The translations under genes and the position numbers were made by a program. The notes beneath the pieces are model-generated. The model saw only the letters and a program-made list of their open reading frames with translations. It searched no databases and was not told the origin of the DNA. Positions 6,063 to 52,284 of a stretch of 64,000 nucleotides of DNA are shown in pieces. Positions within the stretch are counted from its first letter, which is position 1. Each line of letters begins with the position of its first letter. The stretch is from Botryllus schlosseri (Eukaryota): the NCBI GenBank assembly GCA_051294905.1, contig CM119372.1, positions 38,380,001 through 38,444,000 on the forward strand, written 5' to 3'.

Positions 6063-6143
6063 CTGAGCTATATAAACACTGGAGTTCGCTACTCGCGATA
6101 TTTGCGTGATCAATTAGCCGCCATCTTTGAGTTAAGTTGATAG

Positions 6144-21708: not shown

Positions 21709-22305
21709 TTTTACACCATACCGATATTATTATTTGATTCCTGAGATGCCAACTTATAGCACGGTCTACTTTTCGCCAGACACCATCGAAAAATGAACTC
21801 ATTTGGAGGCGATGTTCACGCTTACAAATTAGAATTGCCAACATGGCCATTCACAATGCGATTGCTAGGTAGCGTGCCAGCACTACAGTTGAATGTAGGC
21901 TCATGGCGCAACGTTATGTTGCAGGCCACAAATTTGAGAATTGAGAAGTAGCCTAAAGTTGATCAAATGATATCAGCTAACAAATTTCCCCGCCGCTGAA
22001 CTATATTATCCCGGTTTGTTGGAATTACAATTGAACTGCGCATAGTTCGACGTTGTTAAGTGTATTATGAGAGAGTTTATATTCTCAAGACAGCTATGTA
22101 CGCCTAGACTTCGCAATAGTATAGTGGAGATCACCGTGGAATTATACGTAATCAAAGTTAGTTCAAATCCATCAAACGCCAGTTTCGGAAAATGTACCAT
22201 TACCAAACTCAACAACAAACAAATGAAGGAGTTGGAGAAACATTAGTTATTCTAATTTGCCGTGGGACATGCTGGCGAATTCTTTGCTGCAAGCTGCGAC
22301 AAATC

Positions 22306-22683
22306 AAAGCAATATAATATATGAACACGTGCCGATGTGACAGTCGGTATGCAGGTCGCACGTCTCAGCGCTTGCAGCAAAGAATTCGCCAGCATGTCCC
22401 ACGGCAAATTAGAATAACTAATGTTTCTCCAACTCCTTCATCGCCGTCTGTTGACAAACTGCGTGATTATGATCAAGTTACTGCTTGTAATTCGGCTATT
22501 GGACAGCATCTCTTATCCCATCCAGAATGTGCTGATCATTACAATGTCAGTCAATTTTCTATAGTTGCTCGTGGACGTTCTCTTTTTCATTTAAAGGTCC
22601 TGGAATCTACGATCATAAAGCTGCGAAAGCCGATTCTCTGTCGCCAGAAGGAACGCCTCTACACTCTTGGAATATTTCATTAA
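22306..22683 (+). pseudogene. Penelope-type GIY-YIG endonuclease fragment
   Basis: NIIYMNTCRCDSRYAGRTSQRLQQRIRQH...SAIGQHL...F.I.....LESTIIKLRKPILCRQKE fits the IY..C.C...Y.G.T...L..R..QH...E...I...P pattern of the Penelope endonuclease. No reverse transcriptase upstream. Confidence 0.85.
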
Positions 22684-22895: not shown

Positions 22896-25348
22896 TAAAT
22901 TAACAATATGAAGTTATTGTTTCGCGTTATTCTGAAGTTCTGTACCACAAATCACTTGTTATCAATTTGCAAGTTAGATTGAGGTAAAGAGCCGAACACG
23001 CATTATCGTGACTTTATTTGCTCTTTTTATATAGCCTACTTACGAGACAGAAAATGGGAAATCGAGAAAAAAAGTTGGAGCAATGTATCATAAGGTAGCG
23101 AATTCTAATATGCCTAATCTCCTTGATCGTTTTGGACCTTATTTTCCAAGACATTAGGTAAAAACCACAACACAAACATGTGGTTTTTTCACCCTCTCGA
23201 CAAACTCCGGGACCTTTGTGTCAGCTCTCAAAAACAATTTCTGCCAGCAAGCATTCTTCACTCGCGAAAAATACGCTGTTTTGGATAGGACTGCAGAACA
23301 GATTTCACGACCTCTCCATCCAAGCACTATTACTATTATTCTTGTACAAAATCCAACAACTTTTTTGGCCGATAAGGGGTTTCGTGGAATAGTTGAATGC
23401 AAAACGAGGGGGAAAAGTTGCCTTTTTAATGAGACACTCGACAGCTAAAGCTATAGTAGCCAATTTGTTGCACATCCGAAAAAAATATCGTCAAGTATCG
23501 TCATCTTCTTTGTATAACAATTTTTAATTGGTTTGTGCGAATGAAATTTATTTTACAAAAGAAGCGTGATTGGAGCTCAAACATGCTGCAAAGCACTGAA
23601 TTAAATCATACAAAAGGGTTGGTAAAGGTGAGCACTGCGCAATGTAGCCTAAGCACTGAGCCATCTAAGAAACAGAGTTACGTTGTTATTAGAATATTCT
23701 ACTACTACTACGTGATTAAGCCGTGATTTTTTTGTTTGCGGCCAACTTATTTGTGATTTAGCAATGGAGGATAAGTGAAACGTACAATCAGGGAATGACT
23801 GCTGGTTTCTCTCTCAAATCGCAAAGAAGTCCGCCAGGCGCCAAGACCAACATTTCATTGTAATTTCGAAGAATTAAAGAACCAACACCATTGCGATTTC
23901 GTCTATTGGTACTGGTACTTGAAATTGCGACCATAAACTGCTAGAAGTGAGAAAAATTAGTAGATATAGATGCGAATCATTCGATATCACCTAACAGAGT
24001 TACAAAAATTGGGTTTAACAAGACTTTAACAGGGAACTGAGCAGTCCACACAATGACTTGGACTCGGACTCTAGTCATAATACCATGACTCGGACTCGAC
24101 CCTCTGCTCGATGACTTGGACTCGGACTGGACTCAGTGATGAATTGAAAATGACTCAACTTGACTCGAGTCAAAACTATGAAAGTTAGAATGACTTGTGA
24201 CTCGGAGCCTTGTGACTTGCGTTGGTTAAAACCCTGACTCAAAGTGACATTGAACTCAGTCACTTTTATACGCCGTCACGCATTGAAACCGTGAGAATTC
24301 CGTTTTTTCGTGGAAGGGTTCGAATAAAAGACACTTTCTACCAGAGAATGTATGGAAGTATCTTTCATTGCACTACAACAAATTTTAATTATTTGTGCCA
24401 TAATGTGAAATGTAACTACTGGGATTCTTCATAGGTCCCGATGTTGTTAAAATAATGTTTTTTTTTCATGTAAAGATCTGTCATTTTTCACATCAAAAAG
24501 TTTTTCTCAGGCCAAGCTACTTAGAGAGTCGGAGTCTTTATTTTCATCTAATCAAAATACATAAAAACAGACGGCAATGATGGTGGTACAGAAAATGTGC
24601 ATGCACAGTATTTGGTATCAGATAGGAATGATCGATTTACGACCGTGAAGGTCAACTAGTCTGATTATACCAGCATCAAACAAGTGCACTTGACTCTACA
24701 GTCTGGCTAATAACACTGTGCGGCATTTGAAAATTAATTTTCAAAGATCAAAGACGTTTTAACTGTTTTTGGAACAATTTTTTGCGCTGAACTCAAAAAT
24801 GCAACCAGTTTTTTTTTAATTTAATCAGGTCAAATTTACTTATTTAACTATGCAAGCTTTTGGTCATTATTGTAAAAAAAGAAACTAATTTTTTGGTAGC
24901 TTAATTGGTCATGATAGTGGTGAATTTTTTCAAGATGGTATTTTAATTTCAATTCAATCTTTTTGTAATGATATATATCCGCTTTAAATACTACTGCAAC
25001 ATTATAATACAGTTGAAATAAAGCACTTACAACCAACCAAGAAATCATAATTTTGTTCAATGGCGCTCAACCTAACAGAAGAAGGTAGAAGTTAATATGT
25101 TACACTATAGATACGTAAATAATATAAGATACAAACGATCTACGCTGACTATAAATGTCGCTTTAAAGATTCTCTTCCGTGTTTGGAGTTATGTGCAGAT
25201 CTCTCTTCAAGCACCAACGGCAATAATCTGCAAACATGTTTATGTCCGTGTATCTTAGATACATTTCTTCCATCTGGCGAAGGTCTTGGTGGAATCTCTC
25301 TTCTTGTTCTTCGCTGTAATCACCACAGTTGACTGGAAAGTAATAGTA

Positions 25349-26724
25349 GGGGAGACCGGGGACAAATGTAACTAGGGGCAAATGTAACAATCGACCTCAC
25401 CGCTAGTAGGATGGAGAAATCAGCTTGATATTTCAAGTGTGCATGCAGTAGTTATCTCTCCTATTATACCTGGAGTTACGTTGAGCTACTATGCGAAACC
25501 CCGGAATAATTTGCAAAAAACGAAATTTTTGACCCTTGAGTAAAGTTTTTCTGGTCTGGAATAATTTGTCTAGACGAATAGTACCTCAAGTAGTTACAAC
25601 GTAATATGTGTAGCTGGAACAATGTTACTATAGTCTACCGTGGTGATGGAAAGAATAGGACTTGCATCGCCGGGAAGGTACCATACTGAGACAATATTCA
25701 TGGTCGAGTGTGTCAGGGGCAATCGTAACACTCTGTTACTTTTGCCCCGTTACAATATGTTATCAATTCTGAATGTCTTTCTTCATATGTTGGTATTACT
25801 ATTCATCTACTGCAGAATAACCTTGCAACAGCCAGAAGTTCACCAGAACAGATACTGCCTTGCGATACCAATTCTAACCTTATCATCTGTCGAAACGGCC
25901 ATACAATAGTGGTGATGTGAATCTGACGGTTCGGTTATTTTCGTGATTCAACCACCCTTTCTCATATTGATCGACTTTTGGTGTGTCGAACTTCAATAGT
26001 CATGGCTTAATTCTCGTCCTCTGACTTTGATCATGGCCCACTTACATTTTGATATTTGATGTGAACAATTTATGTTAATTTTCTACAGCACAGATAAATG
26101 TCATTATAGCTTTGACGCCACACAATGTTGCGTCCTCGTTTTACTATACTATCATCGGCCTATTCAACCAAAATATGTTAGCCAGGTCGGTTTGGCACCT
26201 TCGCAGGTAACCGAATGACCAACCCATTATGCCCGCTCAACAGCAGAACCTTGGTAAAAGAGGCCGAATGTGTGTAGGGAGATGATGGAATGAATGTGTT
26301 TCTTGTACACTTTAAGCTTGAACAAGACACGAAGGGTGATATTGCATTCAGATGCCATAATTGCGACGGGGCGTAGCCTAGAAGCGTTCAAACGTCTCTT
26401 CCTTTAGTTTCATGCAATATTACAATTTGTGCTTCCGTTTTCGTTGTTCATTTAGTTTGTGTTTAGTTATAAGTAACACTGTTACAATTGCCCCGCAAGG
26501 GTGGTACAATTGCCCCTGGGTACGGGGCGATTGTAACATTTGAGCAGCGATTTTTGCGACCCAAAATTTCTATGATTGATTGTTGATTGAGTTCCAATTT
26601 CGTTTTCATATCAACTATCGAGTTGTTGGCTTCTTTATAAAAAACTTTGGAAGTGAAATTTCCACGAGAAAAGCACGTAATGTTGGAAAATACGAAAAGT
26701 GTTACAATTGTCCCCGGTCTCCCC
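25349..26724. mobile_element. Tc1/mariner-superfamily (pogo/Fot1-like) non-autonomous element
   Basis: TIR GGGGAGACCGGGGACAA(A/T)TGTAAC with TA on both sides. Removing it restores the Chapaev reading frame HFLSSHYYYFP. Confidence 0.88.
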
Positions 26725-26854
26725 TAATGAGAACTCAGAAAGTGCATTTTCACAAAACATGAGGGTTCCAAGGGATGGAAAGCTTTCAATCAGCTCTTTG
26801 ACATGTTCTTCGTAATCAGAGCTTCTATGTTTGAGACGGACTTTCAGCATTCCC

Positions 26855-27060
26855 GTGGCCACTCACTGGCCACGGATTTTTTTGTGGCCGGCCACAAATA
26901 TTCCGTGGCCGGCCATGAAAAGTGCTATTCCATGGCCGGCCACAGTGAATTTGATGGCCGGCCATGAAATTTCGCTGTGGCCGGCCACGAAACTTTCTTG
27001 GCCGGCCATGGAAAAGTCGATTTCATGGCCGGCCACAACGAATTTTCATAGCCGGCCGTA
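26855..27060. repeat. Array of ~8 palindromic GGCCGGCC motifs spaced ~21-27 bp apart
   Basis: Directly visible. Shorter arrays occur at 12265-12385 and 44150-44216. Confidence 0.85.
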
Positions 27061-28222
27061 ATATACCAACTCAATATTGAATATCAGTACTGTCCGTGCC
27101 CCAATCGTGGTCAAATGTATGATAAATTATGTTCTATTATGTGCGTACGGTCAATAAAACTAGGTGAGAGCGAGAGTTTAGCTCAGTTTATAAGCATTTT
27201 CGCCCGAAATACCAGAAGAATAGCGATATAGTGAAACGACAGGAAGAAGTCGAAACGATCAGGCAGAGTCTCTAAAATATCAATTAAAAACACACAAAAT
27301 GATGTAAAGAATGCATCAAAAATGGAGAGATCCGCTAAATGAATTAGGAAATAATGGTGCAGAAAGCTAGAAGCTATGAAGACAGTATCAAAACTGGTAA
27401 CCGGTAAGTGTTGATTTTTTTTGGTAAAAATATACCCGAATATTCGGCTGACACTCGTCACGGCTAATCGTAAGAAACTTTATATAATTAGAAAGAACAA
27501 TGTACACCAAATATATGACAGAAAATCTCTATAAGTTCCCCAAAAGCTGTGAAATTCACATGAAATTCTTTGGCCGGCCACAGAATAGATTGGAGCTCGC
27601 TGTGACCGGTGCTTTCCCCGTTCTGATATTGATTTTCTACGGAAAGATGTAAAATTGTGCATTGTACAGTTGCAATCGATTGTATAGTTCGTTATATTTT
27701 GTAAATATGCATGCCTGCGATTAAATAATAATGTCCTTCGTTTTTCAACCACGTTTATCGTTTAGGATCAGTCTGTGATGCAAAATTATACATATATATT
27801 TGATCATGTAGTTTAAGGGTGTAGGGGCAGTTTATAATCTTTCGTGAATTGCCCTGATGAATTTATGAATAGTACAATACTGTACTGGAAACTTGTCTTA
27901 ATTCACTGCAGATTTGTTCGATTTACGTTTAAGTTGACTCGAATATATCCCCTTGAATATCCTACATATGTATGTTCCATCGCGATACTTAATCGGTCAG
28001 TATGCGGTGATTTTTTCTGTTTTCTCGTTCTCAGTACTGAATATCGTAATCGCAGTACCCGAAAGAAACAAATAGGGAATCAAAGAACCAAGAATATGTG
28101 GAAAATACTCTTTAAGTCGCAGAAAAGCTGTGAAATCCACCGTACATTTTATGGCAGGCCACAGAGCAGCTCGCTGTGGCCGGTGCTTCCCCCGATCTGA
28201 TATCTCTTTTTAACGGTATACA

Positions 28223-28812
28223 TATAGAAATTAAACGTGGAACAGCAACGACCGATTTTGCAGCTTCGTTCCGCTTCGCTGAGGCTGGAATGGAGAATTG
28301 TTTTGCGTACGCGACTGTAGGATTTCTGGCAACCCGAAAGCTATCTTCCCGACCGCAGAAATTACTGAATCTGGTCTTGATCGAAAGCTACTGTTGCACC
28401 AATTCCGAAAATATAAATTAAAATATTGATCAGGCACTGATCCACCTAGAATCTGTCCTCCAAGTCTGAAATATCGACATTGTTTAGAACAATCGAGTAA
28501 CCGCAACACAATGGCCATAACAATGACCCGTTGCGACTCTTCGATTGTTCGAACAATGCCGATATTTCAGATTGGTGGACGGATTCTAGGTGGATCAGTG
28601 CCTGATCATTAGTTTAATTTATATTTTCGGAATCGGTGCAGCAGTAGCTTTCGATCAATACCAGATTTAATAATTTCTGCGCTCGGGAAGATAGCTTTTG
28701 GATTGCCAGAAATCCTACAGTCGCTTACGCAAAACGATTCCCCACTCCGGCTTCGGCGAAGTGGAACGAAGCTGCAAAATCGGTCGTTGCCGTTCCATGT
28801 TTAATTTCTATA
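28223..28812. repeat. Foldback (palindromic) MITE with ~285-bp arms
   Basis: 28223-28507 (TATAGAAATTAAACGTGGAAC...) is the reverse complement of 28530-28812, with a ~22-bp spacer. Confidence 0.9.
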
Positions 28813-28820
28813 GTATAGAG

Positions 28821-29677
28821 CAGTGGTTCTTAACCTTTTTCATATCGTTACCCTCAAGAAGAAAGTGACGGGACGCAATTACCCTTTTTCAAAAATTAAA
28901 AAATTACAGCTTGCACACTAATTGTATAACCGCATAAAGATTAACTCATAAAATGTATACTGAAATGTCTGATAGAAATAAAAAGTCAATGGGAAAGCTG
29001 GTGCTGTTTTTGTGTAATCCGGTAGTCAAATCTCATGTAATTGTCAATAGCAAACTTATTTCGTTTTGATAGATACTGTTGCAGAAAATTATACTTCACA
29101 GCAATAACTTAAAGGAATTCAATCAGAAAGTTCAATGTCATTATGACAAAGACTGGTAATTCATTTTGAAGGCAAACCAAAAAGGTTCCAAAATCTTCCC
29201 CTCGTTTTTTCGAAGGCATTTTGATCATTTCAGACTTAATTTCAATGACTAGACTAGACCACTACACTTTTTAATATTAACAATTATATTTCCACAATGC
29301 TGTTACTGCATTATATGGTAAAGCTAATCTTAGACGCCCCTTGTTGTCTTTCAATTCGCCAGCATGCGCAACAATATATGATCCGCACTACTGCAAAATA
29401 AATTGGACTTACCTAGCATTACACTAAACTACATTCGCCCCTGTTATTCATATTCACTATAATGGTTACTATGATATCACAGCAGGCATGGTGTGTTAGG
29501 TGCAACGAATACATACAAGCTCGCAAAAATATATGTTAGCCTACATTCATACTTGTGTTTGAAAATACTTCAGCGTTGTAAGTATATAAAAAAACACGTT
29601 AATTTGAATTACCCCCCCCCCCCAGAAATTGGTAAATTACCCCTTGGGGGTAATTACCCCCAGGTTAGGAACCACTG
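28821..29677. mobile_element. Non-autonomous hAT (Charlie-like) element
   Basis: TIR CAGTGGTTCTTAACC / GGTTAGGAACCACTG. Perfect TSD GTATAGAG. Confidence 0.9.
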
Positions 29678-31671
29678 GTATAGAGGATATATAGTTGCAA
29701 ACAATTCCATAGTTTGTTATCTTTCGTATAGCTGAATAGCAGGGAATTGGATAATGCCGGGCTGATACAATCCTTCCTTTCTGTATCAGGTCTATGAAAA
29801 GTCCACGATATACGGTTATATACATATTTGATAATCGTACTGCTACGCATACGACGTTCGCTATCCTCAACATCAATTGAGCTTGCTGCACTCATATTGT
29901 TGGACGATGATAATTGTGTCGACGAATCTATGAACTGCAATCTGCAACTGTACAAAAAGTCAACGATGTAGCCTAACCTACCGCCGGTACTAATGATAAA
30001 ATGTGGGGCTTTGTTCCCAGAAATTCGATTTTGGTAACGTTTCCGATCCCGTATAATTTGTATATATATATAGATATGCATCTAGGAGCCGTTTTTCCAG
30101 GTTGAAACAAATCATGTACGAATGAAATGGATGTCGCAGTCACTATCGATGGCGTGCATGCCAGAGGATTATGATTACTTGGGTGCAAGGATCGTTTTGC
30201 ATCGCATGTCGTTGTTAGATCAAGCTGCTAACCGATGTGGTGGGCATCCCAGCAAACACAAAACCGTAAAAGGATCATCCGGGATATCTCGATTAGGTTC
30301 TGATTTTCTAAGTGTCGAGGGAATGTCTAAAATACGTAGTAGGATGGTCTTGTGGTTATATTCAATCAGAATAAATTCATACTCGGTGTTGTTCCATCTC
30401 ATGCATTAGGCTTTGTTATATCCGGTAGTTAACCTAATAATGCAAATTTTCTATCTCTCGCTGGTATGACTAAAATACGTAGAAAGGATGACTTTGTCGG
30501 TACATTCAATCACGATGAATTCCCATCCGGTTTTGTTCGATCTCATGCAGTAGCTTCGTTCTACCATTAGAAAACAATGTTCTCCCTTCGTTTTATTGCG
30601 TGAGGATGTCACCGGTGTTGTATATTCGTGTTGTTGCTCTAAGGTCGAACAGTTTTGTTTTCTTCTGATATATATGATCTTCATTATATATATATTCGCT
30701 CTTTCGGTAATCTCGCATGTTCAACGAGTATGGCTAATAGTTTTATTCAGAGAATAACTAAATAAGTGAGATGTTGTACGTTTAGGAATATGATTATCGA
30801 TGCGTGACTTCTAGAATATTTCGGCGATTCAAATTTTACGTCATCGCGCGGGACAACGATTTGACGCGCAACAGGTCGCAGCCAGGCATAGTTCGCTCTT
30901 TCTGTATGGTAAATGCCGTAAATATATAGGAATTGTGACTGACTGAGGTAGCGGGTTAAAGCTATATACGGAGTAGCATATAGCTTATGGGGTATTTCGA
31001 ATTGCCTGTAGTATATGACGCCTTGAGCTGTTTGACTTTCTGCAAAACAGGTGTAGACAACTATAGAAAAGTTTCAGCTTTTCCAGGCTAGAATTAGAGC
31101 TAAACCGTTTTTTTTCCAAATTAGATTACAATTATATTACTGGCATTTCGCTCTAATTTAGTGAAATTAGACCACCATAATTATCTAGTTGTCCAAGTCG
31201 CTTCAAACATCTGAATTACCGGTATACCTATACATACGGTATATCATAATATTTATGCTTGAATTTTCTAGGTATATAAGTCATATAGATACATACCTGT
31301 AGAACACTGATTCGTGATTTTATAAAAGTTGGTGCAAGAATGGACATTTTCAACTTGATGTTGATTAATGGAGCAAAATCTGATATTTGAGTGCAATTAT
31401 ACCTCGAATCCAGTGACAAGATTATTAATCGTTGAAACCAAACGCAGCTTGTTTATGTTGGCCCAGAGAATTTGGCTAGCCAGACCATATTGATAGAATA
31501 TGGTCACAGTAAGATAATATTTTGGGCTAATTTACATGAACTTTCCAACATTTGATTTGATATGTCCGCTAAAACAGTTGTTATTCTGCTTTCGAATAAG
31601 ACCTAAATTGCTGATTTCAATGGTAACTGTGTTTGTCAAAGGCTGTAAAGGTAATTTCTTTTCCATGTTAG

Positions 31672-32784
31672 ATGTTTGTTTGTTTGTGGTGTTCATGGTG
31701 GTGGTTCGACTACACTGGCCATTTTACACCAGGCCGGTTCTTATTATTATCATTCCGTATCTGCCCGATTACCAGTGAACTCGGCACTTAGTGAATTCGG
31801 CCGCACAAACTCGGCACTTGGTGAATTCGGCCGTGGTAGATCTGGTAGCGGTACCGGTCGCCATGATTGGTTACTGGAATGTTTGCCGGTGAACTTGGCA
31901 CTTTGAGTGGTTGTCAATGTTGTACGGGGGTCAGGGTATGCGTAGATCACACAGTCACGGCATGATTAGATCACAGATTGCGTAATCGCGGGAAATAACG
32001 CGACGCTCTTCACTTGGTGAACTCGGCCCTTGGAGGAATTGGCACTAGAACACCTTCGCATTAGAAATGCATTTAATATGAATGAACAGTATCAAAAAGG
32101 AAATTTAAACGTGTCGTGGCTCGCGGTAGATCTCGTAATCTTGGGATCCTTCAACCCTGTTATCGAGACACCCTAACCCCAGAGTGGAATCGTCTCTCCA
32201 AAGGCAAAAAATAATTTATTTTGACGTGATCATGCGAAACATTTGTTGATGAGGAACACTGGCTTGTCGTGATCGATAAACGTAGAAGCGCCGCTTGATC
32301 TTCCACATTTTCGATCTCACATACAACGCCAAGATCCATCTTCTCAAAACTTACACGACACAGGCCCGTCACTCACGCCATCGATTCCAAGCAGACCGCG
32401 CGTGGTCGGTATATGAGCGCTGCGTTATTTCCCGCGGCTACGCAATCCGTGATCTAATCACGCCGTGACTGCGTGATCTACGGATGCCCTGACCTCCTTA
32501 CAAGATTGACGAATCACTTGATACTACTATCATTAGTTTATTAATTCATATTAATAGCTGTTAATACACTTCATTACAAAATTTCACGAGGGCCGAATTC
32601 ACCAATTGCCGAGTTCATCGGCAACCATCTGCCCACTTATAGCACGGCCCACTCCTAGGCTTTTTAAGACATGGCTATGCGGATCAGATGGCGAGGTGGA
32701 GCCTAGATAAACGGCCAACACTTCGGTAGGAATTATGGAGGCGAGGTGTCAGGCTCGAACCCGCAATTCATTGGTGTTTAGCTA
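31672..32784 (-). mobile_element. tRNA-derived SINE split by an insertion
   Basis: 31672-31766 plus 32627-32784 align to the SINE at 54825-55111. B-box-like GGGTTCGAGCC on the minus strand. Confidence 0.7.
31767..32626. mobile_element. TIR element with 8-bp TSD (Mutator- or Merlin-like MITE)
   Basis: ~35-bp imperfect TIR G(A/G)TT(A/G)CC..TGAACTCGGCA.TT.GTGAATTCGGCC. Perfect TSD ATCTGCCC. A second internal inverted repeat lies at ~31925-32005 / 32417-32500. Confidence 0.8.
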
Positions 32785-32866
32785 TAATGGACCGTAAAAT
32801 GGCACCGTAGCATTTGACATTTCGTGTGGCAATTGACTTTTGTGTGGAAAATTGTGTTCGTTTCAG

Positions 32867-34020
32867 AACTTATCCGAAACTTTTATTCCGTCATAGATTG
32901 TATATGATAAAACGATATCGTAATTGATCCTAGAAGAATTCCAAAGCCACTCACCACAAAGGAGGATTTAAAGAAGTTTGATGACATATTGAATGAAAGC
33001 AAAAGCCTTTGCAAGAGATGTGGTATGTTGAATCTGTTTTGTTATTTTCAAATGCTTGCCGATAGCAGACGGTATATATAAACGTAAGATGTGGAAGCTA
33101 TCAAGGTGTTATGTTTATTATTTTTAGAAATTCAGTCAGTCAAAGTGGACGATCGTATTGCTTGGATTATATTTAGGCTTATTTTAGCATCTTTGAGATG
33201 CAACTCTGAACGTGGACGGTCATGAACAGTCAACTAATTCTGTTCCTATATTGACATATCAGACATTTGCACTCGTACCGTTGGCGGCGACAATATTGGT
33301 CAGTCAGCAAAAAGCATCATGAAGAAGGTTGCCAGTCTGGTGAAATTATAGCAGAGTCGGAAAGAATGGGAAATACGCTTTCATCAACCTCCATTTGAAC
33401 AAGATCACATAGTAAGAGACATTCATGATATGCTGCAAATGTCACTGTGTTCTTTGTCTAGTCACCCCACTCATGTAACTATTGAGGCTTCATGCCAGGG
33501 TTGTAACCAAGTCACAAGGCTCCGAGTCGCAAGTCAATCTCACTTTTATAGTTTTGACTCGAGTCATTTTCAATTCACCACCGAGTCAAGTCCGAGTCCA
33601 AGTCAGCGAGCAGAGGGCCGAGTTCGAGTTATGGTATTATGACTCGAGCCAGAGTCATTGTGTTAGCTGCTCAGTTTCCAATTTAAGTCTTGTTAAACCA
33701 ACTTTTTATATATTTTTTGTGATATCGAGTGGGTCGCATTTATAATATACGAATTTTCCTTACTTTTAGCAGTTTCTGGCCGCATTTTCAAATACCAGTA
33801 TCAATAGACGAAATCCCAATAGCGATTTGCTGTACTATTCTTTGAAATAATAATGAAATGTCGGTCTTAGCCGTCTGAGTCTCAAGTCATGCGCAATGAG
33901 TCGAGTCATTTCAGTACTTTGAGAAGATGACCTGAGTCAAGTCGAGTCAACAGAAAAACCTGACTCGAGTCTTACAACCCTGCTTCATGCAATGAGCATT
34001 TACTCTGAAGATAAATAGTA
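32867..34020 (+). pseudogene. Spliced, degraded DUF4806-like accessory gene
   Basis: Segments RIPKPLTTKEDLKKFDDILNES (ending at GTATG) and RTVGGDNIGQSAKSIMKKVA..NYSRVGKNGKYAFINLHLNKI (ending at GTAAG) resemble the DUF4806 pattern. Frameshifted and interrupted by a MITE. Confidence 0.5.
33496..33982 (+). mobile_element. hAT MITE of the GACTCGAGTC family
   Basis: TIR CAGGGTTGTAA / TTACAACCCTG. Perfect TSD CTTCATGC. Confidence 0.9.
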
Positions 34021-35699
34021 ATTATATAACTGGTTGGTGGTACAAAATTTTAATACCGCTTTCAAAAGTACCTTCATGATAAACGTTATTGAAACCCGAA
34101 GAACTTTTTGCGTGCCTATTAAAGAGCTACCGGCACCATAAAGGAAGCAAAACAGAGTTGAATTCAAAACTAGATGGAGAATTATGAAGCATTAATGCCG
34201 AATTTAGAAATAACATCAATGGAGCCAGAACACAGCAACAATGCAGTGCATAACAACGGTTGCGTAAAACAGTATGAAAGCGTGACACAATTCTTTAATT
34301 ATTTATTATAGTGGTGCCCAACGTAAATACTATTTTATTAAAATCCGAATTTTTCGATGGCAATAACTCCGCTTCCACTTGTTTGAATCGAACCAAATTT
34401 GATGAACATCGTTTCTATACATAACCTAACACTTTCATGGGGTGAACAGAAAATTTTCAAATTTTTTCTATTTATTTTTATATAATAAATAGAAACTTTC
34501 TTTTCCTGTAGCAATGCGGCTACTGGTTGGAATTGAACCAAATTTGGTGTGTAGGCTTGAATTAGGTAACCTAACAATTTTATCAAGTAGCAAGAACGAT
34601 TTGAGAAAAAAAAGTCATTTTTTAAGAGCCCTAATGTCCATGTCAGAGAAACGTTTTAGGGTAGGCCTACTGACATGTCTCGCAGCGTTCTCTACATAAT
34701 TGTCAATTGCGATACAAACTGTTCGCTTGTATTGGTTAAGCCATCCAACTTCGAATTGTAAAATGTTGGGAGTCTTGATATCAAATTTTTGAAAGGTGCA
34801 CTTTGAGAAGATTTCGGAATCTGTCAAATTATACAAAAAAATTTAGCAAATTCTTTGACATATTTCATCCATTTGGGACTCGATCAACGTAAAAGAATTA
34901 GTAATTATTTTATACAATATATTGTATTTGTAGTTGAAGTATAGTAATAATTCTTATGGCTACCGCCAGTGGTGGCTTTATGATTGGGGGGGCCCTAGGC
35001 GAAACCTCCGGGGGGGGGGGGGGGGGCCCATATCCAAGTAATTGTAGCTTCTGGGGGGCTGCGCCCCCCAGACCCCCCGCGACAAACGTCAGATTGCTAA
35101 GTATCCATTTCGCAGGGGGTTTGTAAGTGCCGAGCCAGATGCTGGATTAGGCCTATGATCTATTTATTATCTGGAAAGGAGATATTGTTGCATGAATTGG
35201 CGTAAAGAAGAAATGCGTGACAATGCGACAAAACACCAGTAATACCAAGGGAACACATAACTACTGATAGCATCTTCAAAGACCTAGTTAGGGTTTGTTT
35301 CAACGTTTCACATGGACAAATGTCTTCAGGGGCGCTGATTGCATGATGTGCAAGAAGTTGACATATTGTGTTAAATTTGAAAAATAACACGAAGACTGAT
35401 GTGTGCATCACAAATATGTACCAAACATATGCCAAAGCATTACACATAACTCAAGTTGATAAGTTCGTTAAATAACAATGAACATCCCCTTCAGAAAAAT
35501 AAACTAAACACATTGGAATATTAATCTTAGGTGCACACGATTTTACGTAACTTTGCAAAGAGACGATCAAAGTATTCAATACCAATATAATCATGCAAAA
35601 AATGTGGTATAACAAGGCATAGAAATATAACCAGAAAAAGTGTGGTTACAAACAAGACGTTAAAACAGCAGTAATCTTCAAATGGTCCGATTTACCTTA

Positions 35700-38492
35700 T
35701 TACTTTATTAAGAAACAGCATTTTCTAGCTTTTTGCTTCGCAAACTCGTCAATTAGTAAGTTGTGATCAAGGCCATAATTTATTTCACTTTCTATACACA
35801 TCAGTGCCAATCCATTTAGACGCTCTTGGCTCATTCGAGATCGCAGAAAAGTCCTAATTAATTTCAATTTCGAGAATGAGCGTTCACCACTTGCCACAGA
35901 CACTGGTATGGTCAGAACTATTCGCAGAGCTCCAGACAGATAATGGTAGTCAGAAAGCATCCCGCCTTTGGCTAGATACCGCAACGCATCTAGAGCTGTT
36001 ACACCAGGACCTTTATTAGGAATACTAATAAAGGACTCGATTTCTCCCAACAAGACACCTGCATCAATGTCCTCACCAAGAAACTGCTCGATCTTATCAC
36101 ATGCCTCAGCTAAAACTTCACGACTTATTTTATCAGGCTTGAGTGTCATGATATTTAGTAATGTACTGAAGTTTGAGTAAAATTTACCCAATTGACTGAA
36201 TCTTTCTTCCATGGATAGAATGAAAGTGTCCACCATCACATTGAATACATCAACTTCATATTTCTTCTGAGCTGAGAGTATTTCCTCATTGTCAACGGCC
36301 TCATCAAAAAATCCAATTCGGCTTCTTTGCCTCGAGTGCTGAAATGAAGTTTGTATCTCCACTCCATCAACCACCATGCCTCTGACTAACTGATCTGCCT
36401 CATCCAGAGATTGCTGGAAGCCATCAAGACGAAAACGTCTGATCCAAGTAAGGAGACCAGAAATCATACTTTGCATGATGTCTACCTGGATGGACTGCTT
36501 TTGTAAATGCTGAGAGACAACATGAACTTGAAATAGCACCTTGTACCAGATAACAGAGCTAAGAATGAATTCATAGGAACAAACTTCTTTCAAAATCCCA
36601 GTTATATCAGCAGCACTTTTCCCATCACCTACAACCTGGGAACTCTGCAAAACCATTAGAAGTGAATTAATCACTCCATCCAAATGAAATCTCACCACTT
36701 CTACAGACCGAATTTTACTCTCCCAACGAGTGTCGCTGGGATACTTCACAACTTTACTGCAATTTTCTTGCAGAATGTTCCATCGTTTGGTAGAGGATGA
36801 AAATGCCGAATACAGTTTTTGGAGAAAACCAAAGTAAACATAGAATCTTGTACAACATTTTGCAGCATCACAGAGAACCAGATTCAAGGAATGAGATCCA
36901 CAGGGCATGAAAAATGCATGTTCATTCAAATCCAAAATTTTCTTTTGTACACCAGCATTCCGGCCAGCCATGTTCGCACCATTATCATACCCCTGACCTC
37001 TACAATTCGCAATATCCAAACCAAGCTCTTCCAGTCGATCAAGCAAAGCCTTAGTGAGACCCAACGAGGTAGTTTCTTTAACATTAAGAAAGCCAGTGAA
37101 ATGCTCTCTTACAGAAACATCCCCTTCAGTATCCACATATCGAACTACAAGCGTCATTTGTTCTTCATGGCTGCAATCAGGAGTACAATCAAGAATGACA
37201 CTGAAGTATGTGCATCTACGAACATCATAAGTTATTTGATCAAGAATATTTTTTCCCACCAAGGAAATCAACTCATTTTGAATATTTTTACCTAAATAAT
37301 TATCGGGTAACTGTTGATTCTTTACTTTCTGAGTATGCTCTGCAAGAACTGGATCAAACTTGGCTAGAAGTTCAACAAGGCCTAGAAATTGACCTTGATG
37401 TGGATCCTCTAGCCGTTCATGTCCAGCAGTACCTCGTAACGCACAGTGATTTCTTGCTAAGTACTGGATGATTGCAAGCAAGCGTTTAAGAATAGACCTC
37501 CAGTATTCAACAAGTTCACTGTGCTTACTTTGGATATTCTTCTGTAAAACTGTTGGATTTTTGAGAGCTGCACTATTTTCCGAAAACAAGTGAAGTGCTT
37601 TGAAATGATCTCTAGAAACTTCATGTTCGCTCAATATTTTACCAAGATTTTTCCAGTCGCTGCAACCATCATGGACTAGGCTACTTTCACCACAGGAGAA
37701 TAATTTACAGTGGAAGCAATACACTGAATCGGTCGACTTCGAGTATACTAACCAAGAACGCTTCTGTAGTTTCTGATTTTTCAGCTTCCTCTGAAAATGA
37801 GTCACAGAGAACTTTCTGTCTTTAGTGACAGGAAACACAACACAACTCAAATCATCTTGAACTGGCCCCCTCAAAACAACTTCATTCTTCTCTGATGTAC
37901 TTAGTCTATATGGCCATACTCCAATATCATCCAATTTTCCTACTACCTCTTTGGTAATGGTAATAGAATGAACAGCAGTAGAAGAGTGATCTGATACAGA
38001 TTCAAATCTGGGCCGAGACTGAGTAGAACAGCAGCCTTGAGATTCCATCAGTACAGCACCTGGTTTGCCAGAAGAAGCATTTCTGACTGGTCCTTCAGCG
38101 GTACCTGTACTACTAAAGCTTGGCTGTTGTGAGATGTTTGCTGAATTAACTACAGTATTTTCAGTAATTTCACAGTTTTTGCTCACAATACCAACAGGCT
38201 CACCTCCCACGGAATCACTACACTTTGGCTGCGCTGTGGTAACTGATAATTCTCCGGTACAATGATCTCTTGAGCTCTCTCCTTCGACTACAACAGGGAG
38301 TTCCTCATCTGGCATTATCATTGATGAAAAAGCAGCACCATCCTCAATTTGTTCAGAACATTCCTGAGCTGACATAGATGGCTTGAAATATTTGTGTAGC
38401 AGTCCAAAATTTGCATCGTCACTTTCTTTCCGAATCTGAACCAACTTCCTTTTCTGAGATCCCGACTTACATTTAGCATGTACTCGCGGCAT
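35700..38492 (-). CDS. hAT transposase, 930 aa (TTF-type zinc finger, DUF4371, hAT dimerisation domain; often annotated ZMYM1-like)
   Basis: WLVYSKSTDSVYCFHCKLF..H..H zinc finger; ILDCTPD; GQGYDNG; CGSHSLNL (CxxH); DTRWES; SVASGERSFSKLKLIRTFLRSRMSQERL. Uninterrupted single ORF. Confidence 0.95.
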   Translation of the reverse strand: MPRVHAKCKSGSQKRKLVQIRKESDDANFGLLHKYFKPSMSAQECSEQIEDGAAFSSMIMPDEELPVVVEGESSRDHCTGELSVTTAQPKCSDSVGGEPVGIVSKNCEITENTVVNSANISQQPSFSSTGTAEGPVRNASSGKPGAVLMESQGCCSTQSRPRFESVSDHSSTAVHSITITKEVVGKLDDIGVWPYRLSTSEKNEVVLRGPVQDDLSCVVFPVTKDRKFSVTHFQRKLKNQKLQKRSWLVYSKSTDSVYCFHCKLFSCGESSLVHDGCSDWKNLGKILSEHEVSRDHFKALHLFSENSAALKNPTVLQKNIQSKHSELVEYWRSILKRLLAIIQYLARNHCALRGTAGHERLEDPHQGQFLGLVELLAKFDPVLAEHTQKVKNQQLPDNYLGKNIQNELISLVGKNILDQITYDVRRCTYFSVILDCTPDCSHEEQMTLVVRYVDTEGDVSVREHFTGFLNVKETTSLGLTKALLDRLEELGLDIANCRGQGYDNGANMAGRNAGVQKKILDLNEHAFFMPCGSHSLNLVLCDAAKCCTRFYVYFGFLQKLYSAFSSSTKRWNILQENCSKVVKYPSDTRWESKIRSVEVVRFHLDGVINSLLMVLQSSQVVGDGKSAADITGILKEVCSYEFILSSVIWYKVLFQVHVVSQHLQKQSIQVDIMQSMISGLLTWIRRFRLDGFQQSLDEADQLVRGMVVDGVEIQTSFQHSRQRSRIGFFDEAVDNEEILSAQKKYEVDVFNVMVDTFILSMEERFSQLGKFYSNFSTLLNIMTLKPDKISREVLAEACDKIEQFLGEDIDAGVLLGEIESFISIPNKGPGVTALDALRYLAKGGMLSDYHYLSGALRIVLTIPVSVASGERSFSKLKLIRTFLRSRMSQERLNGLALMCIESEINYGLDHNLLIDEFAKQKARKCCFLIK

Positions 38493-38714
38493 TGTAGCCG
38501 ATAATTACGAGATATTGATGCTACCAATTACAACATGACATATAAATGAGTGATACAAAACTCTTCGTATCTAAATAAATGTACGGTTATCAACCGGCGA
38601 GTGCGCAGTACTAAATATGCTGTTTACCGAGTCATCTTTATATTCAACTGGTAGGCCCATTTCAAGAATGCAATGGTCAAAATTGTCTTATGCAACACCT
38701 GATCAATCAATACT

Positions 38715-40320
38715 TTCCTCTGCCCTGCTGAAATTGATTCCAATTCTAAATTGCTAGGTCTCAATTCAAAACATAGATTTTTGGGGTATAAAATATCAGG
38801 CATCAGGCCACTACAACCTTTCTTGTAAACAAGATCTATCTGGTATTTGTAGTACATCACCATTAAAAAACATGGAACTCTGTTTGAAAAATCACCTTCT
38901 GCCAACACTAGAAACATTTTCTGATTGACTGTACCGGGTGCACATTGGTCATGGTAAAGTTTGAAAATACGATCCCAATCCGTAGACAAGGAATGAATAA
39001 ACTTACAATCCTGACAACCCTGAGAATGGATTCCCATTCAGAAAAGACCTGAAGGCACAAATCACCAGAGTGATGAGAATGGCTCATTAAACAACAATAT
39101 ATATAGTAACCTACATGTTTTCTTTTGCTTTCAAAATACTATTTCCTTTAATATTTTGGATATCCAGACTCAATGTGGACTTGCTGGGCGTGCTTCATAT
39201 GTCCAAAAACTTTGCCAGAATTGTATATTCCTAGATTAGAATAACTTTATACTGCGCCTGTAAAAAAATTGAAATATTTTAAAATTATGGATCGACAGTT
39301 GTACCATAATGAGCAGATATTATCAATTATAGTTAGCTATTTGCAATACTAAATAACCTGCCATATGGATATGATGTCAATGTCATGCACTATAGTATAC
39401 ACATTACACACACACTGCAAAAATGATTCACAAGAAATTGAGTATATTACAGTACAAAACTGTCATGATACCGCATTAGCGGTACACCCGAACACTTCAC
39501 TTCATTGATGAAATCACTTTCATAAGGTTAGAGTACATCCAAACGAAGTTGCATGAAAAATCAAAAAGCTGCAAAAAGTTGCTTGAAAAAATGAAGCAAA
39601 GTTGAAATACCTGATTCCTCCAAACAGCTTAAAACACCATACTACATAACTTCCGAGTATTTAGGAAGCTGCCAGAAGCTGTAAAAAAAAGTTGCAAAAA
39701 CTTGCCCTGTGATCATTTAATTCTTTCCTCTGCCCTGCTGAAATTGATTCCATTGCTAAATTGTTTGGTCACATTTTGGTCTTTTTCTGTGACATCATAT
39801 TAAATTATCAACCTCACAACAAATTGAATATATGTGGCCTTCCGTACACCTTTCTCAATGATAGCCATTCAAACCTTTCAAATATCGACAGAGATTTTTG
39901 AGGCATAGAATATCAGGCATTAGGCCGCTAGAAACTTTCCTGCATGCAAGATCTATTGCATATCTATCTGTAGTACACCACCAATTAAAAGACATCCACC
40001 TGTGATAAAAAAAAAACGCTTTGTGACAACACCATAAACAGTTTCTGACTGACTGTACCGGGTGCAAATATAGTGTGGTAAAGCTTTGAAAATACGCTGC
40101 CAATCCGCGGACAAGAAATGAACAAATTTACCATCATGACAACCCTTGGAATGGATTTCCATTCAGAAAAGGCCTAATTCACAACTAATATGTTGAGTCA
40201 TGAGAATGGTTCAGTAAACAACAATATATAGGCTATAATAGCCTACATGCTTTCATTGGCTTTTCAAATGACTATTTCCTTTGATATTTTGGATATTCAG
40301 GCAATCAGGCTCAGTGTGGC
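38715..40320 (-). repeat. Internal ~0.5-kb direct duplication inside the hAT element
   Basis: ~38715-39180 is collinear with ~39723-40320. Both translate MG/EIHS.GC.D.KF.H.LS.DW.RIFK...GLMPDIL..KNLC. Confidence 0.8.
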
Positions 40321-40494
40321 CTCGCTTCATTAGAAATTAACATACCATATGAAAGCTGGCATCAAGAGCTAGCAAGTAGAATCTCACACAAACATATACT
40401 GGAAAATTTTGATGCACTGAAATATACACTGCTGCCGCTAGGAAGTATATATTCAATAATAATTCCTTGCATGTTATAATATGACCTCATTGAC

Positions 40495-41425
40495 ATAAAA
40501 TAGAAATAAGCTCTTTTAAAAAGCACAGAAATTCAATTATCGAACACCGTTTATAGTACCATATTCTACATCGGTAGACCTGCATGTATTTTCGCGGTTA
40601 TTCGCAAAATGAGTACGAAAATTCGCATAAATGTGGGAGGGGGGGCCCTCATGAATTCAAAGTAAGCTCTTAGCGGGTACAGAAATTTAATGATAGACTG
40701 TTAAGTGTTTACGGTACCATATTCGACATCGGTAAATATATTTTCACGGTTATTCGCAAAATGATAACATTCGCGTAAATGTAGGAGGGGGGCCCTTTAG
40801 GTACTGTCAAAATGGATAGAGATCATAAAATCAAAGTGAGCTCTTGCAACTAGTGCAGAAATTTAATGATCCACTACTGCTTACGGTACTATATTTTACA
40901 TATGTAGGCAGTAGGCCTACATGTATTTTCACGGCTATTCGCAAAATGATAACTAAAATTTGCATAAATGTAGGAGGGGCCCCCCCTATAAAATCAAAGT
41001 AAGCTCTTTTAGCGGGTTGACTACTGTTTACGGTATTATATTCTACATGGGTACATGTATTTTCGCAGTTATCTGCAAAATGATAACATTCGCGTAAATG
41101 TACGAGGGGGGCCCTTTAACTAATGGCAAAATGGATAGAGATTATAAAATCGAAGTGAGCTCTTGCACCAAGTGCAGGAATTTAATGATCGACAATTGCT
41201 TACGGTACCATATTCTACATTGGTGCATGGATTTTTGTGGTTATTCGTAAAATGTTAACTAAAAAATGTGAATTGATGTTTGACCCCTCTTTACGGTACA
41301 ATACCAAGATTCTTTATGGATACAAGGATTCCGCGGTTATTCGGAAAATGGTAATACTTGAAAAAAGCGCGTAAACCGGAGAAATAGTTGAAAAAAGCGC
41401 GTAAACTGAGGAGGGGGGGCCCTCG
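40495..41425. repeat. Subterminal tandem array of ~155-175-bp units
   Basis: Five to six copies of ...TTACGGTACCATATTCTACAT...TTTTCGCGGTTATTCGCAAAATG...AAATGTAGGAGGGGGGCCC, with alternating long and short variants. Confidence 0.85.
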
Positions 41426-44400
41426 AAAGCGCGTAAATCAACCAGGGGGGCCCTAGGCGACCGCCTACCTCGCCTACCCCAAAAGCCACCACTGGTTACC
41501 GCACTTGTAACGATTCACGGCCATAACTGGAATAATTAGAATCATGTAACTTTCAAATTGTCATGCATTTTGCAACAACATTGTTCTCAATTTTCAAGGT
41601 GCTGACCATTGGAGGAAGAATCACCCTTAAGCCGGGAATTCACGATCCGTAAACGCGGCCGACTGTTTCTCTCCTCAAGAGGAAGGAAGAGAAAAAGGGA
41701 GCAGAAATAGCAAGAGTGTGACAAGTCGCGTCCATTCGCTTAAATGCGTATTTCCATCCGCGAAGCGCGAAGTAGTAGGTGGGAAAACTAATGGGCGTTT
41801 GGTTAGCGCTTTATAAGGTTGACTCCAGCGCTGTATTTGCTGAATGTTGCGGTGAAATAGGGGTGGTGTCATTTGGTATCAATATTGACTATTAAAAGAC
41901 CATTTGTTAGTGGTCATGGATTTGTTCGGCCAGTATGCAGTAATTTCTGATGGTCACTTCCCGGGCTTCTGTTCTCTAACCCCTCATGATTGTTATTCTG
42001 CTTCTAGTAAGACTGTCGATTCTAATGTTTTATCGTATCATTTGTCGGAGGTTTCGCTCGCTTTTTTACAACGTTTTGCTCTCTGCTAAGTCAATTACTG
42101 GCTCAGTATCACTACAGCCTAAGAAACTGCACTAATTCTCATTTTAATGTCTTGCTGGTTATCTTGCTGTCAATTCTAATAATTTGTTAATGTCTATACC
42201 AGTGCCGCCACTCAAATGTTTTGTTCTCTGTACACAATATTGTTAGGTCTTCAGCTTTCCAGGCAGAGTATCATTCCACTTTCTAGACTTGAGTATACAT
42301 CTCTCCAACTAGCTGCCAAATAACTGATTCATTTGGATTGTTGAATTGATCATTTATGACAGAATGTGAAGAAGTTTTAGTCAAGAATTCTTTTTGTGTT
42401 AGTGGCTGTTTTCAAAGGTTGCTGAAGTAGTCATCGTTGATCTTGATAATCAAGTAGAAGTGGCGATTGAAGTCAGTTCTCTAGTCATATAATAATAAAA
42501 ATATAATTATAAAAACTGGAAAACTTGAGTGGAAATAGTCCAGAATAAAATCCATTTTAGTAAGTATGGGTGAAAAAAATGTAGGAGTCATTCGTTACTC
42601 GCTACCTCTGCCATTTTCGCAGTACGAATGTCTTAGCAAATAATCGTCATTTTCATTTTATTTCTACAGGGTGTTGAAAAGAAAACGCCAGAGGGATTAT
42701 CATCATCAGACGATGAAACCTTCTGATTACTGACTGTTCTCATAGTTTCATTCATTGCTACTTGGCCCTACAAGTAATTTCGTTCGTTTCATTTTTTACA
42801 CCGGCATTATTTACTTGCCAATTCGTTTTGAATTAAATTACCGCAAATGTGATTAATATGTAGTAGATAATGTGGGGTGTGTGTGTGTACGCAGCCGTGA
42901 TCAGGTTATCCCCAGTGGTAGAAAACAGGTTATTATATCAGGATATTCTTTTAATGTAGGATCTACATTCTACTCACCATGTTTAAAGGCTGTAGCATCT
43001 GCATAATATTTACATTATTGAAGGACATGGAAAAGACATTGAATTGAGTCGACACAAAATCCCCCTTTCTACGACCTGCCGAGATCTAATATTTACTATA
43101 TCAGGCTCGGCTTTCTACATCTTTGGTCTGTACTGTGTTTACTGGGATAGGACGTAAATGCGTCTGCTTTATAATCGAATTACTGTTATAATAGGCCTAA
43201 TAGATCACTCCAGATACTTTGCGTCATCAAATCCAGTACCATCGACCGACGAAAAAATGCCTATGCCTGCGTATTGACCAATATTCATAATATATTTGTG
43301 GTTAATGCAAGGAGCAATGGAATGTTTCCCCACACAATGTACGGGGAACAATTTTGATGACACAGAGAAGTTCGAATCGTTCATTATAGTTTAGCATCTG
43401 AAGGCAGTGCAAATGCTATCGCTGTGTAAAGTGCATCTGATCTCTCGTGCCCCTGGGTGTCTTCTATGAAAAGCATGCATTCGACACACTGTATTGAACT
43501 ACTTGTATGTGAGTGATTGTAATCATATCTTCAATTGCTTTCGATTTTGGGAAATTGGTAATAAAGAAATAAACGAACTTTTTCAAGAAAAATATGACGG
43601 AGGGGTAGGGAGTTGGATTATCTGCGTTTGCATCACTAATGTGCATGGACGATGGAGAAGCGAAGAGACTGCAAGGCTATCGAGTCTGCACCACGCTTTT
43701 ATCTCTTCACACAATCCCAGTGCGTTCATCTGTGGAAGCTGTGGACAACAGTTTTAATGTAAAGTCGTTTGTCTGGCCGAGCAATAAGATGTATACGCAT
43801 TAACATTACTCTATCAACTTTCTAGGAAGTTCAATGAACACATGTTTCGGTGTTATAGTTTACAACGCACCGCCAAAGAGTAAGTTTTCATACTCAGAGG
43901 GAAGTAAATTCATTTCTACAGCGAACACAGAAAGTAAACATGTGTGGAACCATGGTAATTTCGAACCAATTCCCGAACTGCTTAATATAGTGGTAATGTG
44001 ACTTGACTACATGCGATATTAGTGGAAGCTGTCTACGCAAACCCAACCGCCAGCAAATTCGTAGTGTAAATGAAGAAGATCTACACAAGTATAGCCAAAG
44101 TAGAGGCAAAGGGCGGATTTTTATCCAACTAGATGTGCCAAAATCACGAACTGGCCACGAGAAAACGCTTTTTTATGGCCGGCCATGAAAAAATCTGTGG
44201 CCAGTAAGTGGCCACGGGAAAGCTGAGACCCCACTGCTATGTTTTCCCAGAAAGTTTAAATTACTACTCTAAAAGCTGTCCATGGTTTTTTCTACTGCAC
44301 CCATGTGTGTAGTGAAACCATCGTGCTTGATCAGTTCACAGATATGTGACCTATCAAAGACTCCTCTGATCCTACCTTCACTTCAGAGATACGGGGAATT

Positions 44401-44481
44401 TAATAAGTAAAACAAGAGAAAGTGTAAAAACTGAAAATGACAGAAGGGCTTCAGAACATTCAATTGGAAGAGTGACTGAAG

Positions 44482-50433: not shown

Positions 50434-50594
50434 CCTTAGCCAAATCAAGCAAAATAGTTGGACCAACTTATCACTTAAAACAGAAACACGCCTACATATA
50501 TGGAGACTGTAAATCAGAGTTACCTGTGGTGCTTTATCGCTATTGCGAGGTATTTGAAAGTCAAGTCGAAATGTCGATTTTCCGGTAATATGTA

Positions 50595-51542: not shown

Positions 51543-52284
51543 TATGTGGCATTAATTTTGAAAGTTTTGGCGGAAATCAAAACGTGATTTTATCCCAACA
51601 TTTGAGTTGATATCTATGTTATTCTTGTAAGAGGCGACGAAACATTCTTCATTGCCATGTTGTAGCTTAAATTATAGCACACAACAAAACAAGTAGAAAA
51701 ATTTGAGTTTTGTGCGTATGTCTCATAGGTCCCATGGTCGTGTGCTATTTGACCCACCGGGTGGGGACCGATGATACGTTCGAGCAACACATTTTAAACG
51801 TTTATAATATCCATGTAAATGTCCGCGATAGTTAGAGCTTGTATCAAAGTGTTGAGGCAGCAAATGATCCGCTCATCTCGGCAGAAGATTTGAGGGCCAG
51901 AGATCATTCTGCAATTTTTGATCCATCCGTACCACATCTCCCCTTTTGTGACTGAATTTACAATCATCGATTTCGTTGCAACGGTTGGCATATCAACTGT
52001 TCAGACAAATACTATATCTTGCAATAATTTCTGATTACAATTTGTGATACTCATTCATTTCAGTTAATCACCGAGGTATTTTGATGCTATATTTAGCCTT
52101 TATTTTACTATGAAGACTGATGCCATGAAGTGATTGCGATATGCCCAAATATCAGTATAAGTCTGATAGTGAATTGAAAAGAATACAGCGTTGGCGAAGG
52201 CATCAGTTTATAAAGCATCGTCCTCTAAGCATTGGTTCAACCGGCCGCGTCAATGTCCATTTTAAGCCGATTATGACGACTAAT

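Follow-up and report, generated by a model that had tools for sequence, protein, structure and literature searches.

A window of 64,000 nucleotides from Botryllus schlosseri (GCA_051294905.1, contig CM119372.1, positions 38,380,001 to 38,444,000 of the forward strand) contains a stack of transposons that have landed one inside the other. The DNA is dense in repeats, and its GC content is 40%. From outside to inside, a Chapaev3-like remnant is split by an old non-autonomous element, here called L2; L2 is split by an element with CCCAG ends, here called L3; and L3 holds a coding hAT transposon and a short interspersed element (SINE), the latter split by a MITE (a miniature transposable element with inverted repeats). 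The stack is a real nest, ordinary in kind. Its best explanation, in which we place considerable confidence, is a build-up in two places: insertions at the locus itself and cargo with which L3 had been loaded beforehand. Two of the five levels probably arrived pre-packed, and four levels were probably built at the locus.

The stretch 24600-44500 was compared with contigs from four public runs (X1, X5, X7 and X15), all of them short-read; X7 is labelled organism C, not A. Part of the stretch is present in 20 of the 24 public runs listed. The comparison considers 32 of about 158,900 contig pieces and, among 1,170 joints, the 15 with the best support; the depth of a contig is its mean over the contig and does not equal copy number. 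Seven inserts of the stack have terminal inverted repeats (TIRs) flush with their target-site duplications (TSDs). Four of these TSDs match at 8/8 positions, each with a chance of 3e-5, the frequency with which exact 8-mer pairs occur empirically in the 64-kb window; a 2-mer TSD match has a chance of 0.07. Empty-site joints of the TA-flanked element, of a pair of MITEs and of the hAT turn up where predicted in independent runs.

The Chapaev3-like remnant and L2

The outermost element survives in three pieces on the minus strand. Residues 396-557 of a 557-aa protein (P0002) are collinear with 44421-44245, 26832-26727 and 25348-25143, with 110 of 163 columns identical, five frameshifts and two stops near the edges. 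The most 5' piece kept (44245-44421) starts at residue ~396. The middle piece (26727-26832) ends in the H(4)H motif, here HFLSSH, and includes the left TSD copy of L2 (26825-26832). The 3' piece (24714-25348) covers residues ~496-557 and runs to a CAC terminus at 24714, preceded by A-TAA; it is the only end present. Codons continue across both junctions, with none gained or lost. Of the 557 residues, the C-terminal 162 thus survive; they are collinear, but the frame is not open. Tblastn with six homologues and a terminus scan found neither residues 1-395 nor a second terminus in the window.

Chapaev3 elements are described as having CAC..GTG termini and a TWA TSD between A and T (PMC4079192). 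The remnant resembles them, as far as that description goes, in its CAC end, in the A-TWA-T target at the sole end present and in the H(4)H motif (PMC4079192). The label is given because of this motif and the fit of the target; the homologues carry no family name. The closest of them, the 557-aa protein, is 67% identical and has at least 15 copies named from the ascidian Clavelina lepadiformis. Unlike known Chapaev3 elements, the remnant is reduced to its last 162 residues and a single terminus. About 60 bp from the end of the match lies a CAG-ended element (44482-47080), the first 11 bases of which are one off those of the coding hAT; no TSD was found for it. The 5' part may have been lost by a deletion adjoining this element.

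The remnant is split twice. A non-autonomous element of 1,376 bp (25349-26724) with a TA TSD and a TIR of ~24 bp may be Tc1/mariner-like, by its TSD only. Its empty-site joint occurs in three of the four runs; one contig is 98% alike, five others 82-86%. The second insert is L2 (26833-44236; 17,404 bp), flanked by the 8-bp TSD CTATGTTT (8/8). The first-pass annotation had described a Chapaev element split by a 17.4-kb element, and this is borne out by the TSD and the continuous codons. It had also expected excision to restore a Chapaev frame. The pieces do become collinear and their codons continuous, but the TA-flanked element splits the remnant as well and the five frameshifts remain.

Without its inner inserts, L2 measures ~3.0 kb. 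Its right end is CAG, its inner TIR matches at 49/55 positions and its outer left end is degenerate: within the first 11 bases, the right end has two mismatches to the coding hAT of the window and the left end seven, and the left end differs from the right at about half of the first 12 bases. L2 is 11-13% away from two listed contigs. According to the Repbase rule quoted in PMC4455052, the first 11 bases of a non-autonomous hAT have at most one mismatch to a known member. L2 is only hAT-like in these terms, as judged from its TSD of hAT length and from ends that both deviate further than this from the window's coding hAT. Rfam yields seven matches, all below the gathering score, of which six fall on palindromic subterminal repeats of L2.

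Two MITEs sit in L2. The first (28223-28812) is a palindrome of 590 bp with a 7-bp TSD (6/7), which by its ends and TSD we take to be P-like; the second (28821-29677; 857 bp) is of hAT type with the TSD GTATAGAG (8/8). A joint from 28219 to 29684, seen in three of the four runs, skips both. Within 28216-29685 these two unrelated MITEs occupy one target with zero bases between them, and their order is unreadable.

A paralogue of L2 is present on the plus strand (about 4059 to 12405). It is 82-91% like L2, 5'-incomplete and split twice, and it holds empty sites. It matches the last 1.9 kb of L2; for the first 1.1 kb no convincing match to the paralogue was found. A loose alignment of that 1.1 kb to 3400-4050 was gap-ridden noise and was not counted. 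Across the empty L3 site the paralogue aligns with three extra bases, AT-A-AT (11240-11245 versus 30246-30247/43147-43148), which may be an excision footprint or a plain ATA slip. One of its inserts is a Chapaev3-like derivative on the minus strand (4227-5264; TSD TAA) with a trace of transposase at 4877-4975 (E 8e-4). A paralogue at 10803-12405 had been noted before; it indeed aligns across the empty sites, but it begins near 4059, is split twice and has the three extra bases at the L3 site.

L3 and its contents

L3 occupies 30248-43146 (12,899 bp; 6,363 bp without the hAT). Its TSD is AT and its TIR matches at 12/13 positions (chance ~1e-6). An AT TSD alone is weak (0.07), so that the boundaries are supported by the alignment of the empty site in the paralogue; the earlier claim that a 12.9-kb CCCAG element splits the 17.4-kb one stands on this basis. 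The flanks read C|AT|A, the ends CC..GG. In animals, EnSpm elements with CCC ends may occur; a literature search brought no confirmation of them. A TSD of 2-4 bp is given for the CMC group, and an AT TSD within A|AT|T for ISL2EU (PMC4482050); CMC-EnSpm termini are, in the account of PMC12730594, mostly CA..TG. ISL2EU is ruled out by the flanks. For CMC-EnSpm, the 2-bp TSD fits and the CC..GG ends do not; it is our best guess for the superfamily of L3, as far as ends and TSD can tell. L3 resembles the zebrafish elements EnSpm-N49/N49B, non-autonomous CMC-EnSpm members with a 2-bp TSD, a short TIR and no transposase, as they are presented in PMC13189230. It differs from them in its CC..GG instead of CA..TG ends, and no transposase ties it to the group. 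The literature searched holds no description of a CCCAG-ended EnSpm family or of a composite carrier, and subscription papers, Repbase entries or supplements may hold one.

A transposase of L3 was not detected: 32 chosen of 134 frames gave no Pfam match at E < 0.04, nor did the read-through P0102. The backbone contains a decayed, probably intron-bearing gene on the plus strand (32938-33406) with a relative, P0103, at E 2e-10. P0103 gives but a weak lead to DUF4806 (0.88; 16% of members), and neither it nor P0104, from a further public contig, has a family above the cut-off. P0105 (E 9e-4) was dropped as a long repetitive protein. When metagenomes were scanned with a motif of 20 bases from L3, a single locus (L001) came up, which has no further likeness to the window and was regarded as a chance match. 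Elsewhere in the window, a 617-codon frame on the plus strand (61676-63529) has motifs that, as we presume, recall animal EnSpm/Mirage-type transposases; it has no Pfam match and seems to continue beyond a frameshift.

The backbone of L3 is abundant and uniform. Contigs of X5 differ from it at 29 of 2,127 letters (1.4%) at a depth of 95-257, those of X7 at 78 of 3,437 letters (2.3%) at a depth of 34-43; record 25 of X7 ends at the left end of L3. L3 thus appears as a young multicopy family of 6.4 kb, ~98% homogeneous, with a dominant form that lacks the hAT. If depths of 8-12 in X1 and 42-59 in X15 correspond to a single copy, L3 would have some hundreds of copies and the hAT ~7-8. Inside L3, 34300-34700 is among the deepest repeats of the stretch, and at 34675 the contigs break off in both X5 and X7. 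Neither a TIR nor a TSD was found for this repeat; it is probably a further passenger of L3.

The coding hAT (34967-41494, minus strand; 6,528 bp) has a TIR of 13/13 and a TSD of 7/8. Its open reading frame (35700-38504) measures 934 codons from stop to stop and encodes an intact transposase of 930 aa, which agrees with the intact hAT announced by the first-pass annotation. D435, D503, CxxH, RW, E870, DUF4371 and the dimerisation domain lie in this one frame; the catalytic motifs presumably have the roles usual in hAT transposases. A joint without the hAT (34956->41493) is present in all four runs and is as deep as the backbone in X5 (256.7) and X7 (43.2). The changed copy of the TSD is the left one, since the empty site carries the right-hand copy. 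Pieces of the hAT itself reach a depth of 3.9-4.4 in X5, and bins of its reading frame 0.3-2.4 in X7. The element is like the hAT transposases labelled "ZMYM1-like" in having a TTF zinc finger, DUF4371, Dimer_Tnp_hAT, an 8-bp TSD and CAG ends. It is unlike known hATs of that group in that its best relative, among 87 matches, is 50% identical, so it would be a new member of the family. Its 5' region (38700-41264) contains a 400-bp internal duplication, a tandem array of 170-330 bp and, near 39683, a short repeat of very high depth. Contigs 95% alike and of higher depth over this region suggest non-autonomous hAT derivatives.

The SINE (~31670-32800, ends approximate, minus strand) is of tRNA type. 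Once the insert is removed, its halves match three free copies of the window collinearly. The copy borne by L3 is 82-86% like the free ones, which are 85-89% alike among themselves. The tails are CAA/CAAA, and the window has four copies in all. For the A and B boxes we assumed the RNA polymerase III consensus: both are present in each of the two free copies that have a head (0.28 matches per shuffled window), whereas the L3 copy has only a B box, on the sense strand, its A box having decayed. Neither ARAGORN nor Rfam (E<=1) recognised the head as a tRNA in 24600-56000, and around the L3 copy no direct repeat of at least 6 bp was found.

The MITE within the SINE (31767-32626; 860 bp) has the TSD ATCTGCCC (8/8) and arms that are 87% alike; a SINE split by a MITE with an 8-bp TSD had been proposed and is confirmed. 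Merlin termini are GG. The MITE has GG at its right and GA at its left end, and may be Merlin-like by the right end and the TSD, a length of 8 bp not being diagnostic as hAT elements produce it too. For Merlin, PMC4482050 gives a TSD of 8-9 bp. No coding Merlin partner was seen. A second MITE of L3 (33496-33982) is of hAT type, with the TSD CTTCATGC (8/8); two free copies that the window holds are 86% like it. All inserts named by the first-pass annotation are thus present; four more had escaped it (25349-26724, 28223-28812, 28821-29677 and 33496-33982).

Probable cargo, order of arrival and rival explanations

The SINE, its MITE and the 33496 MITE probably predate the jump of L3 to this locus, because they are only 82-86% like their free copies. 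Most likely, as contigs of X7 suggest, the SINE and the MITE in it are cargo of the L3 master and entered an ancestor of L3 elsewhere. Record 26 (depth 34.4, 15 differences) runs from the backbone into the SINE tail and 37 letters further into the MITE. In record 27 (depth 35.7, 18 differences), the SINE head leads into the backbone. Both are 97-98% alike and of backbone depth. If their SINE parts stemmed from free copies at 15% divergence, differences this few would have a P of 0.002 and 0.003, respectively. A bin wholly within the MITE has about the depth of backbone bins in all four runs (ratios 0.5-1.2). No clean joint that skips the SINE, its MITE or the 33496 MITE is found among the best 15 of 1,170. 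Some or all of the L3 family probably carries the 33496 MITE as cargo; P0104 reads from the backbone 56 codons into it. Most L3 copies would then be loaded, and mobilised in trans.

Several observations weigh against this interpretation. The SINE/MITE cargo rests on two contigs of X7 and on what is missing from 15 of 1,170 joints and from 32 of ~158,900 pieces. The mean depth of 34.4 is also compatible with a deep backbone and a shallow SINE part. Record 19 of X5 enters the 33496 MITE by 27 letters (the bar is 31) and at 40% of backbone depth. A low-depth joint 31199->33496 (X1 20.4, X15 324.3; sides 20-24) exists, so some other form does as well. Further, the best 15 of 1,170 joints include no empty-site joint of L2 or L3, no listed contig piece bridges either junction of the hAT, and the divergences of L3 (1.4-2.3%) and the hAT (0.6-2.6%) overlap.

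The strongest competitor, though an unlikely one, is that all five levels inserted here in turn, the SINE and its MITE being younger than the arrival of L3. Its geometry fits, as each inner element comes with a TSD or an empty-site match, and in records 26 and 27 the assembler could have joined alleles of the locus to deep backbone. The SINE and the MITE, however, are 14-18% away from their own families (MITE arms 87%) versus ~2% for L3. A majority of L3 copies free of the SINE would, moreover, predict a joint that skips the SINE at the depth of the joint without the hAT, and none is listed. Nor is the locus the source of a depth of 35-43, since the flank in L2 has a depth of 6-16 in X7 and the piece listed there is only 89% alike.

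The divergences fall into two groups. The Chapaev remnant, L2, the SINE, its MITE, the 33496 MITE and the palindrome are 10-18% away from their relatives; L3, the TA-flanked element (one contig, 98%) and the hAT are 1-3% away from the nearest contig. This tally omits seven of the 32 pieces, namely records 1-4 of X1 and record 9 of X15 (TA-flanked element, 82-86%), record 7 of X1 (5' part of the hAT, 87%) and record 10 of X15 (28821 MITE, 89%); they represent older relatives of these three families. Together with the decayed left end of L2, the divergences support the order Chapaev, L2, L3, hAT at the locus, as far as sequence distances can date it. At least five changes in 12 terminal bases have a P of 2e-6 at 2% divergence. 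L2 was probably immobile already when L3 landed, because its left end is too changed for an age of 2%. The step from L3 to the hAT is ordered by parsimony, since their divergences overlap; the hAT would have arrived last. A recoverable order of insertion, as claimed before, thus holds for containment and for these four elements. It does not extend to levels 4 and 5: the SINE (14-18%) and its MITE are likely older than the jump of L3 (~2%).

Quite improbably, larger composites (L2 with L3, or L3 with the hAT) jumped as units, which would leave the four-level order undated. L3 probably tolerates cargo, the TSD of L2 is perfect while that of the hAT has one change, and the three extra bases of the paralogue read TSD-base-TSD, as an excision footprint might. 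Yet the left end of L2, 7/11 off the coding hAT and about half of 12 off its own right end, is too altered to fit the 2% age of L3. At 7% per copy, a TSD stays perfect with a P of 0.31; at 1.5%, one change has a P of 0.21. The extra bases equally make a plain ATA slip. A misjoin of repeats by the assembler, without any nest, is very improbable indeed: no listed piece spans the stretch, and empty-site joints of L2 and L3 as well as contigs over the hAT junctions are missing among those listed, but seven inserts with TIRs flush to TSDs, uninterrupted codons over both Chapaev junctions and three empty sites in independent runs speak against it.

The build-up in two places could have proceeded as follows. 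A Chapaev3 copy decays at the locus. The old 3-kb L2, non-autonomous, would land in it, the TA-flanked element later, and two MITEs would hit one target in L2. Elsewhere and earlier, an ancestor of L3, a deleted element with a decayed gene, would have gained the SINE, which was then hit by the MITE with the 8-bp TSD; the hAT-type MITE would also have been added. The composite could be copied many times in trans, because only its ends are required. Much later, a 6.4-kb copy would have landed in the already dead L2 and, last, the coding hAT in that copy.

The stack yields no order of superfamilies. Such a chronology had been hoped for, but a Chapaev3-like element also sits inside the L2 paralogue, the reverse of levels 1 and 2, so that in one window L2-family copies both enclose this type and are enclosed by it; elements of hAT type are spread over levels 2, 3 and 4. 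Transposon clusters have long served relative dating, e.g., by TCF/IMA (Giordano et al. 2007; PMC1914374) and TRANScendence (PMC5657132), and overlapping periods of activity are noted in the latter (PMC5657132). As in the clusters shown there, interruptions are read as newer into older; an 11-kb human cluster has five levels (PMC1914374). In contrast to our single stack, these studies, in their outline of the method, use genome-wide matrices (PMC1914374, PMC5657132), and the families here are uncatalogued ones of an invertebrate. Nests as deep as this one are well known and dating by them is standard, and propagated insertions are an already known caveat.

The precedent for the latter is MLT1F1 in L1MC3/L1MD3, ancient insertions propagated by their host element (PMC1914374). 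There, in the account given, the inner element entered a master once and was copied along (PMC1914374), as is assumed for L3. Here, by contrast, the carrier is a non-autonomous DNA transposon, its cargo is itself nested and a second MITE is added. In MER6, a MITE with a SINE V domain, a SINE sequence likewise spread with the burst of a non-autonomous DNA transposon (PMC6887750). MER6 is described there as mariner-derived and short; L3 has 6.4 kb, CCCAG ends, a 2-bp TSD and several passengers.

If the cargo reading is true, each L3 copy would add another count of one ancient SINE and MITE insertion to an interruption matrix of this genome; the matrix would make both appear younger than L3, and both would form a spurious young peak in a divergence landscape. 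The stack matters mainly as a worked caution and opens no long-standing question; it also provides curated ends for about eight families that are uncatalogued, together with a low-copy hAT of intact structure. Rather speculatively, and with little weight from us, the L3 family might be a serial carrier with perhaps hundreds of copies and no described autonomous partner, each burst multiplying a master with more dead passengers; the 12.9-kb copy could be the next round, a mobile unit spreading the transposase of another superfamily.

Further elements of the window

The second insert of the L2 paralogue is a 5.5-kb element (5335-10802) with CATAG ends and a 7-bp TSD (P-like). It holds a 558-bp palindrome (5505-6062), which has a core motif in common with the palindrome at 28223, and a CAG-ended element with an 8-bp TSD (6144-8102). 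Its excision leaves seven extra bases, like a third, decayed copy of the TSD. A hairpin of 219 bp with perfect arms of 72 bp (22223-22683) adjoins a frame without Pfam match, which presumably recalls the GIY-YIG end of Penelope.

Two other nests are present. At 1002-3753, a CAG-ended element with an 8-bp TSD holds another such element, a copy of the SINE and a MITE with TAGGGTTACC ends. At 48104-51948, an element with TAGGGGAGATG ends has landed in another copy of the family it belongs to, and a CAG-ended element with an 8-bp TSD (48499-50433) interrupts it.

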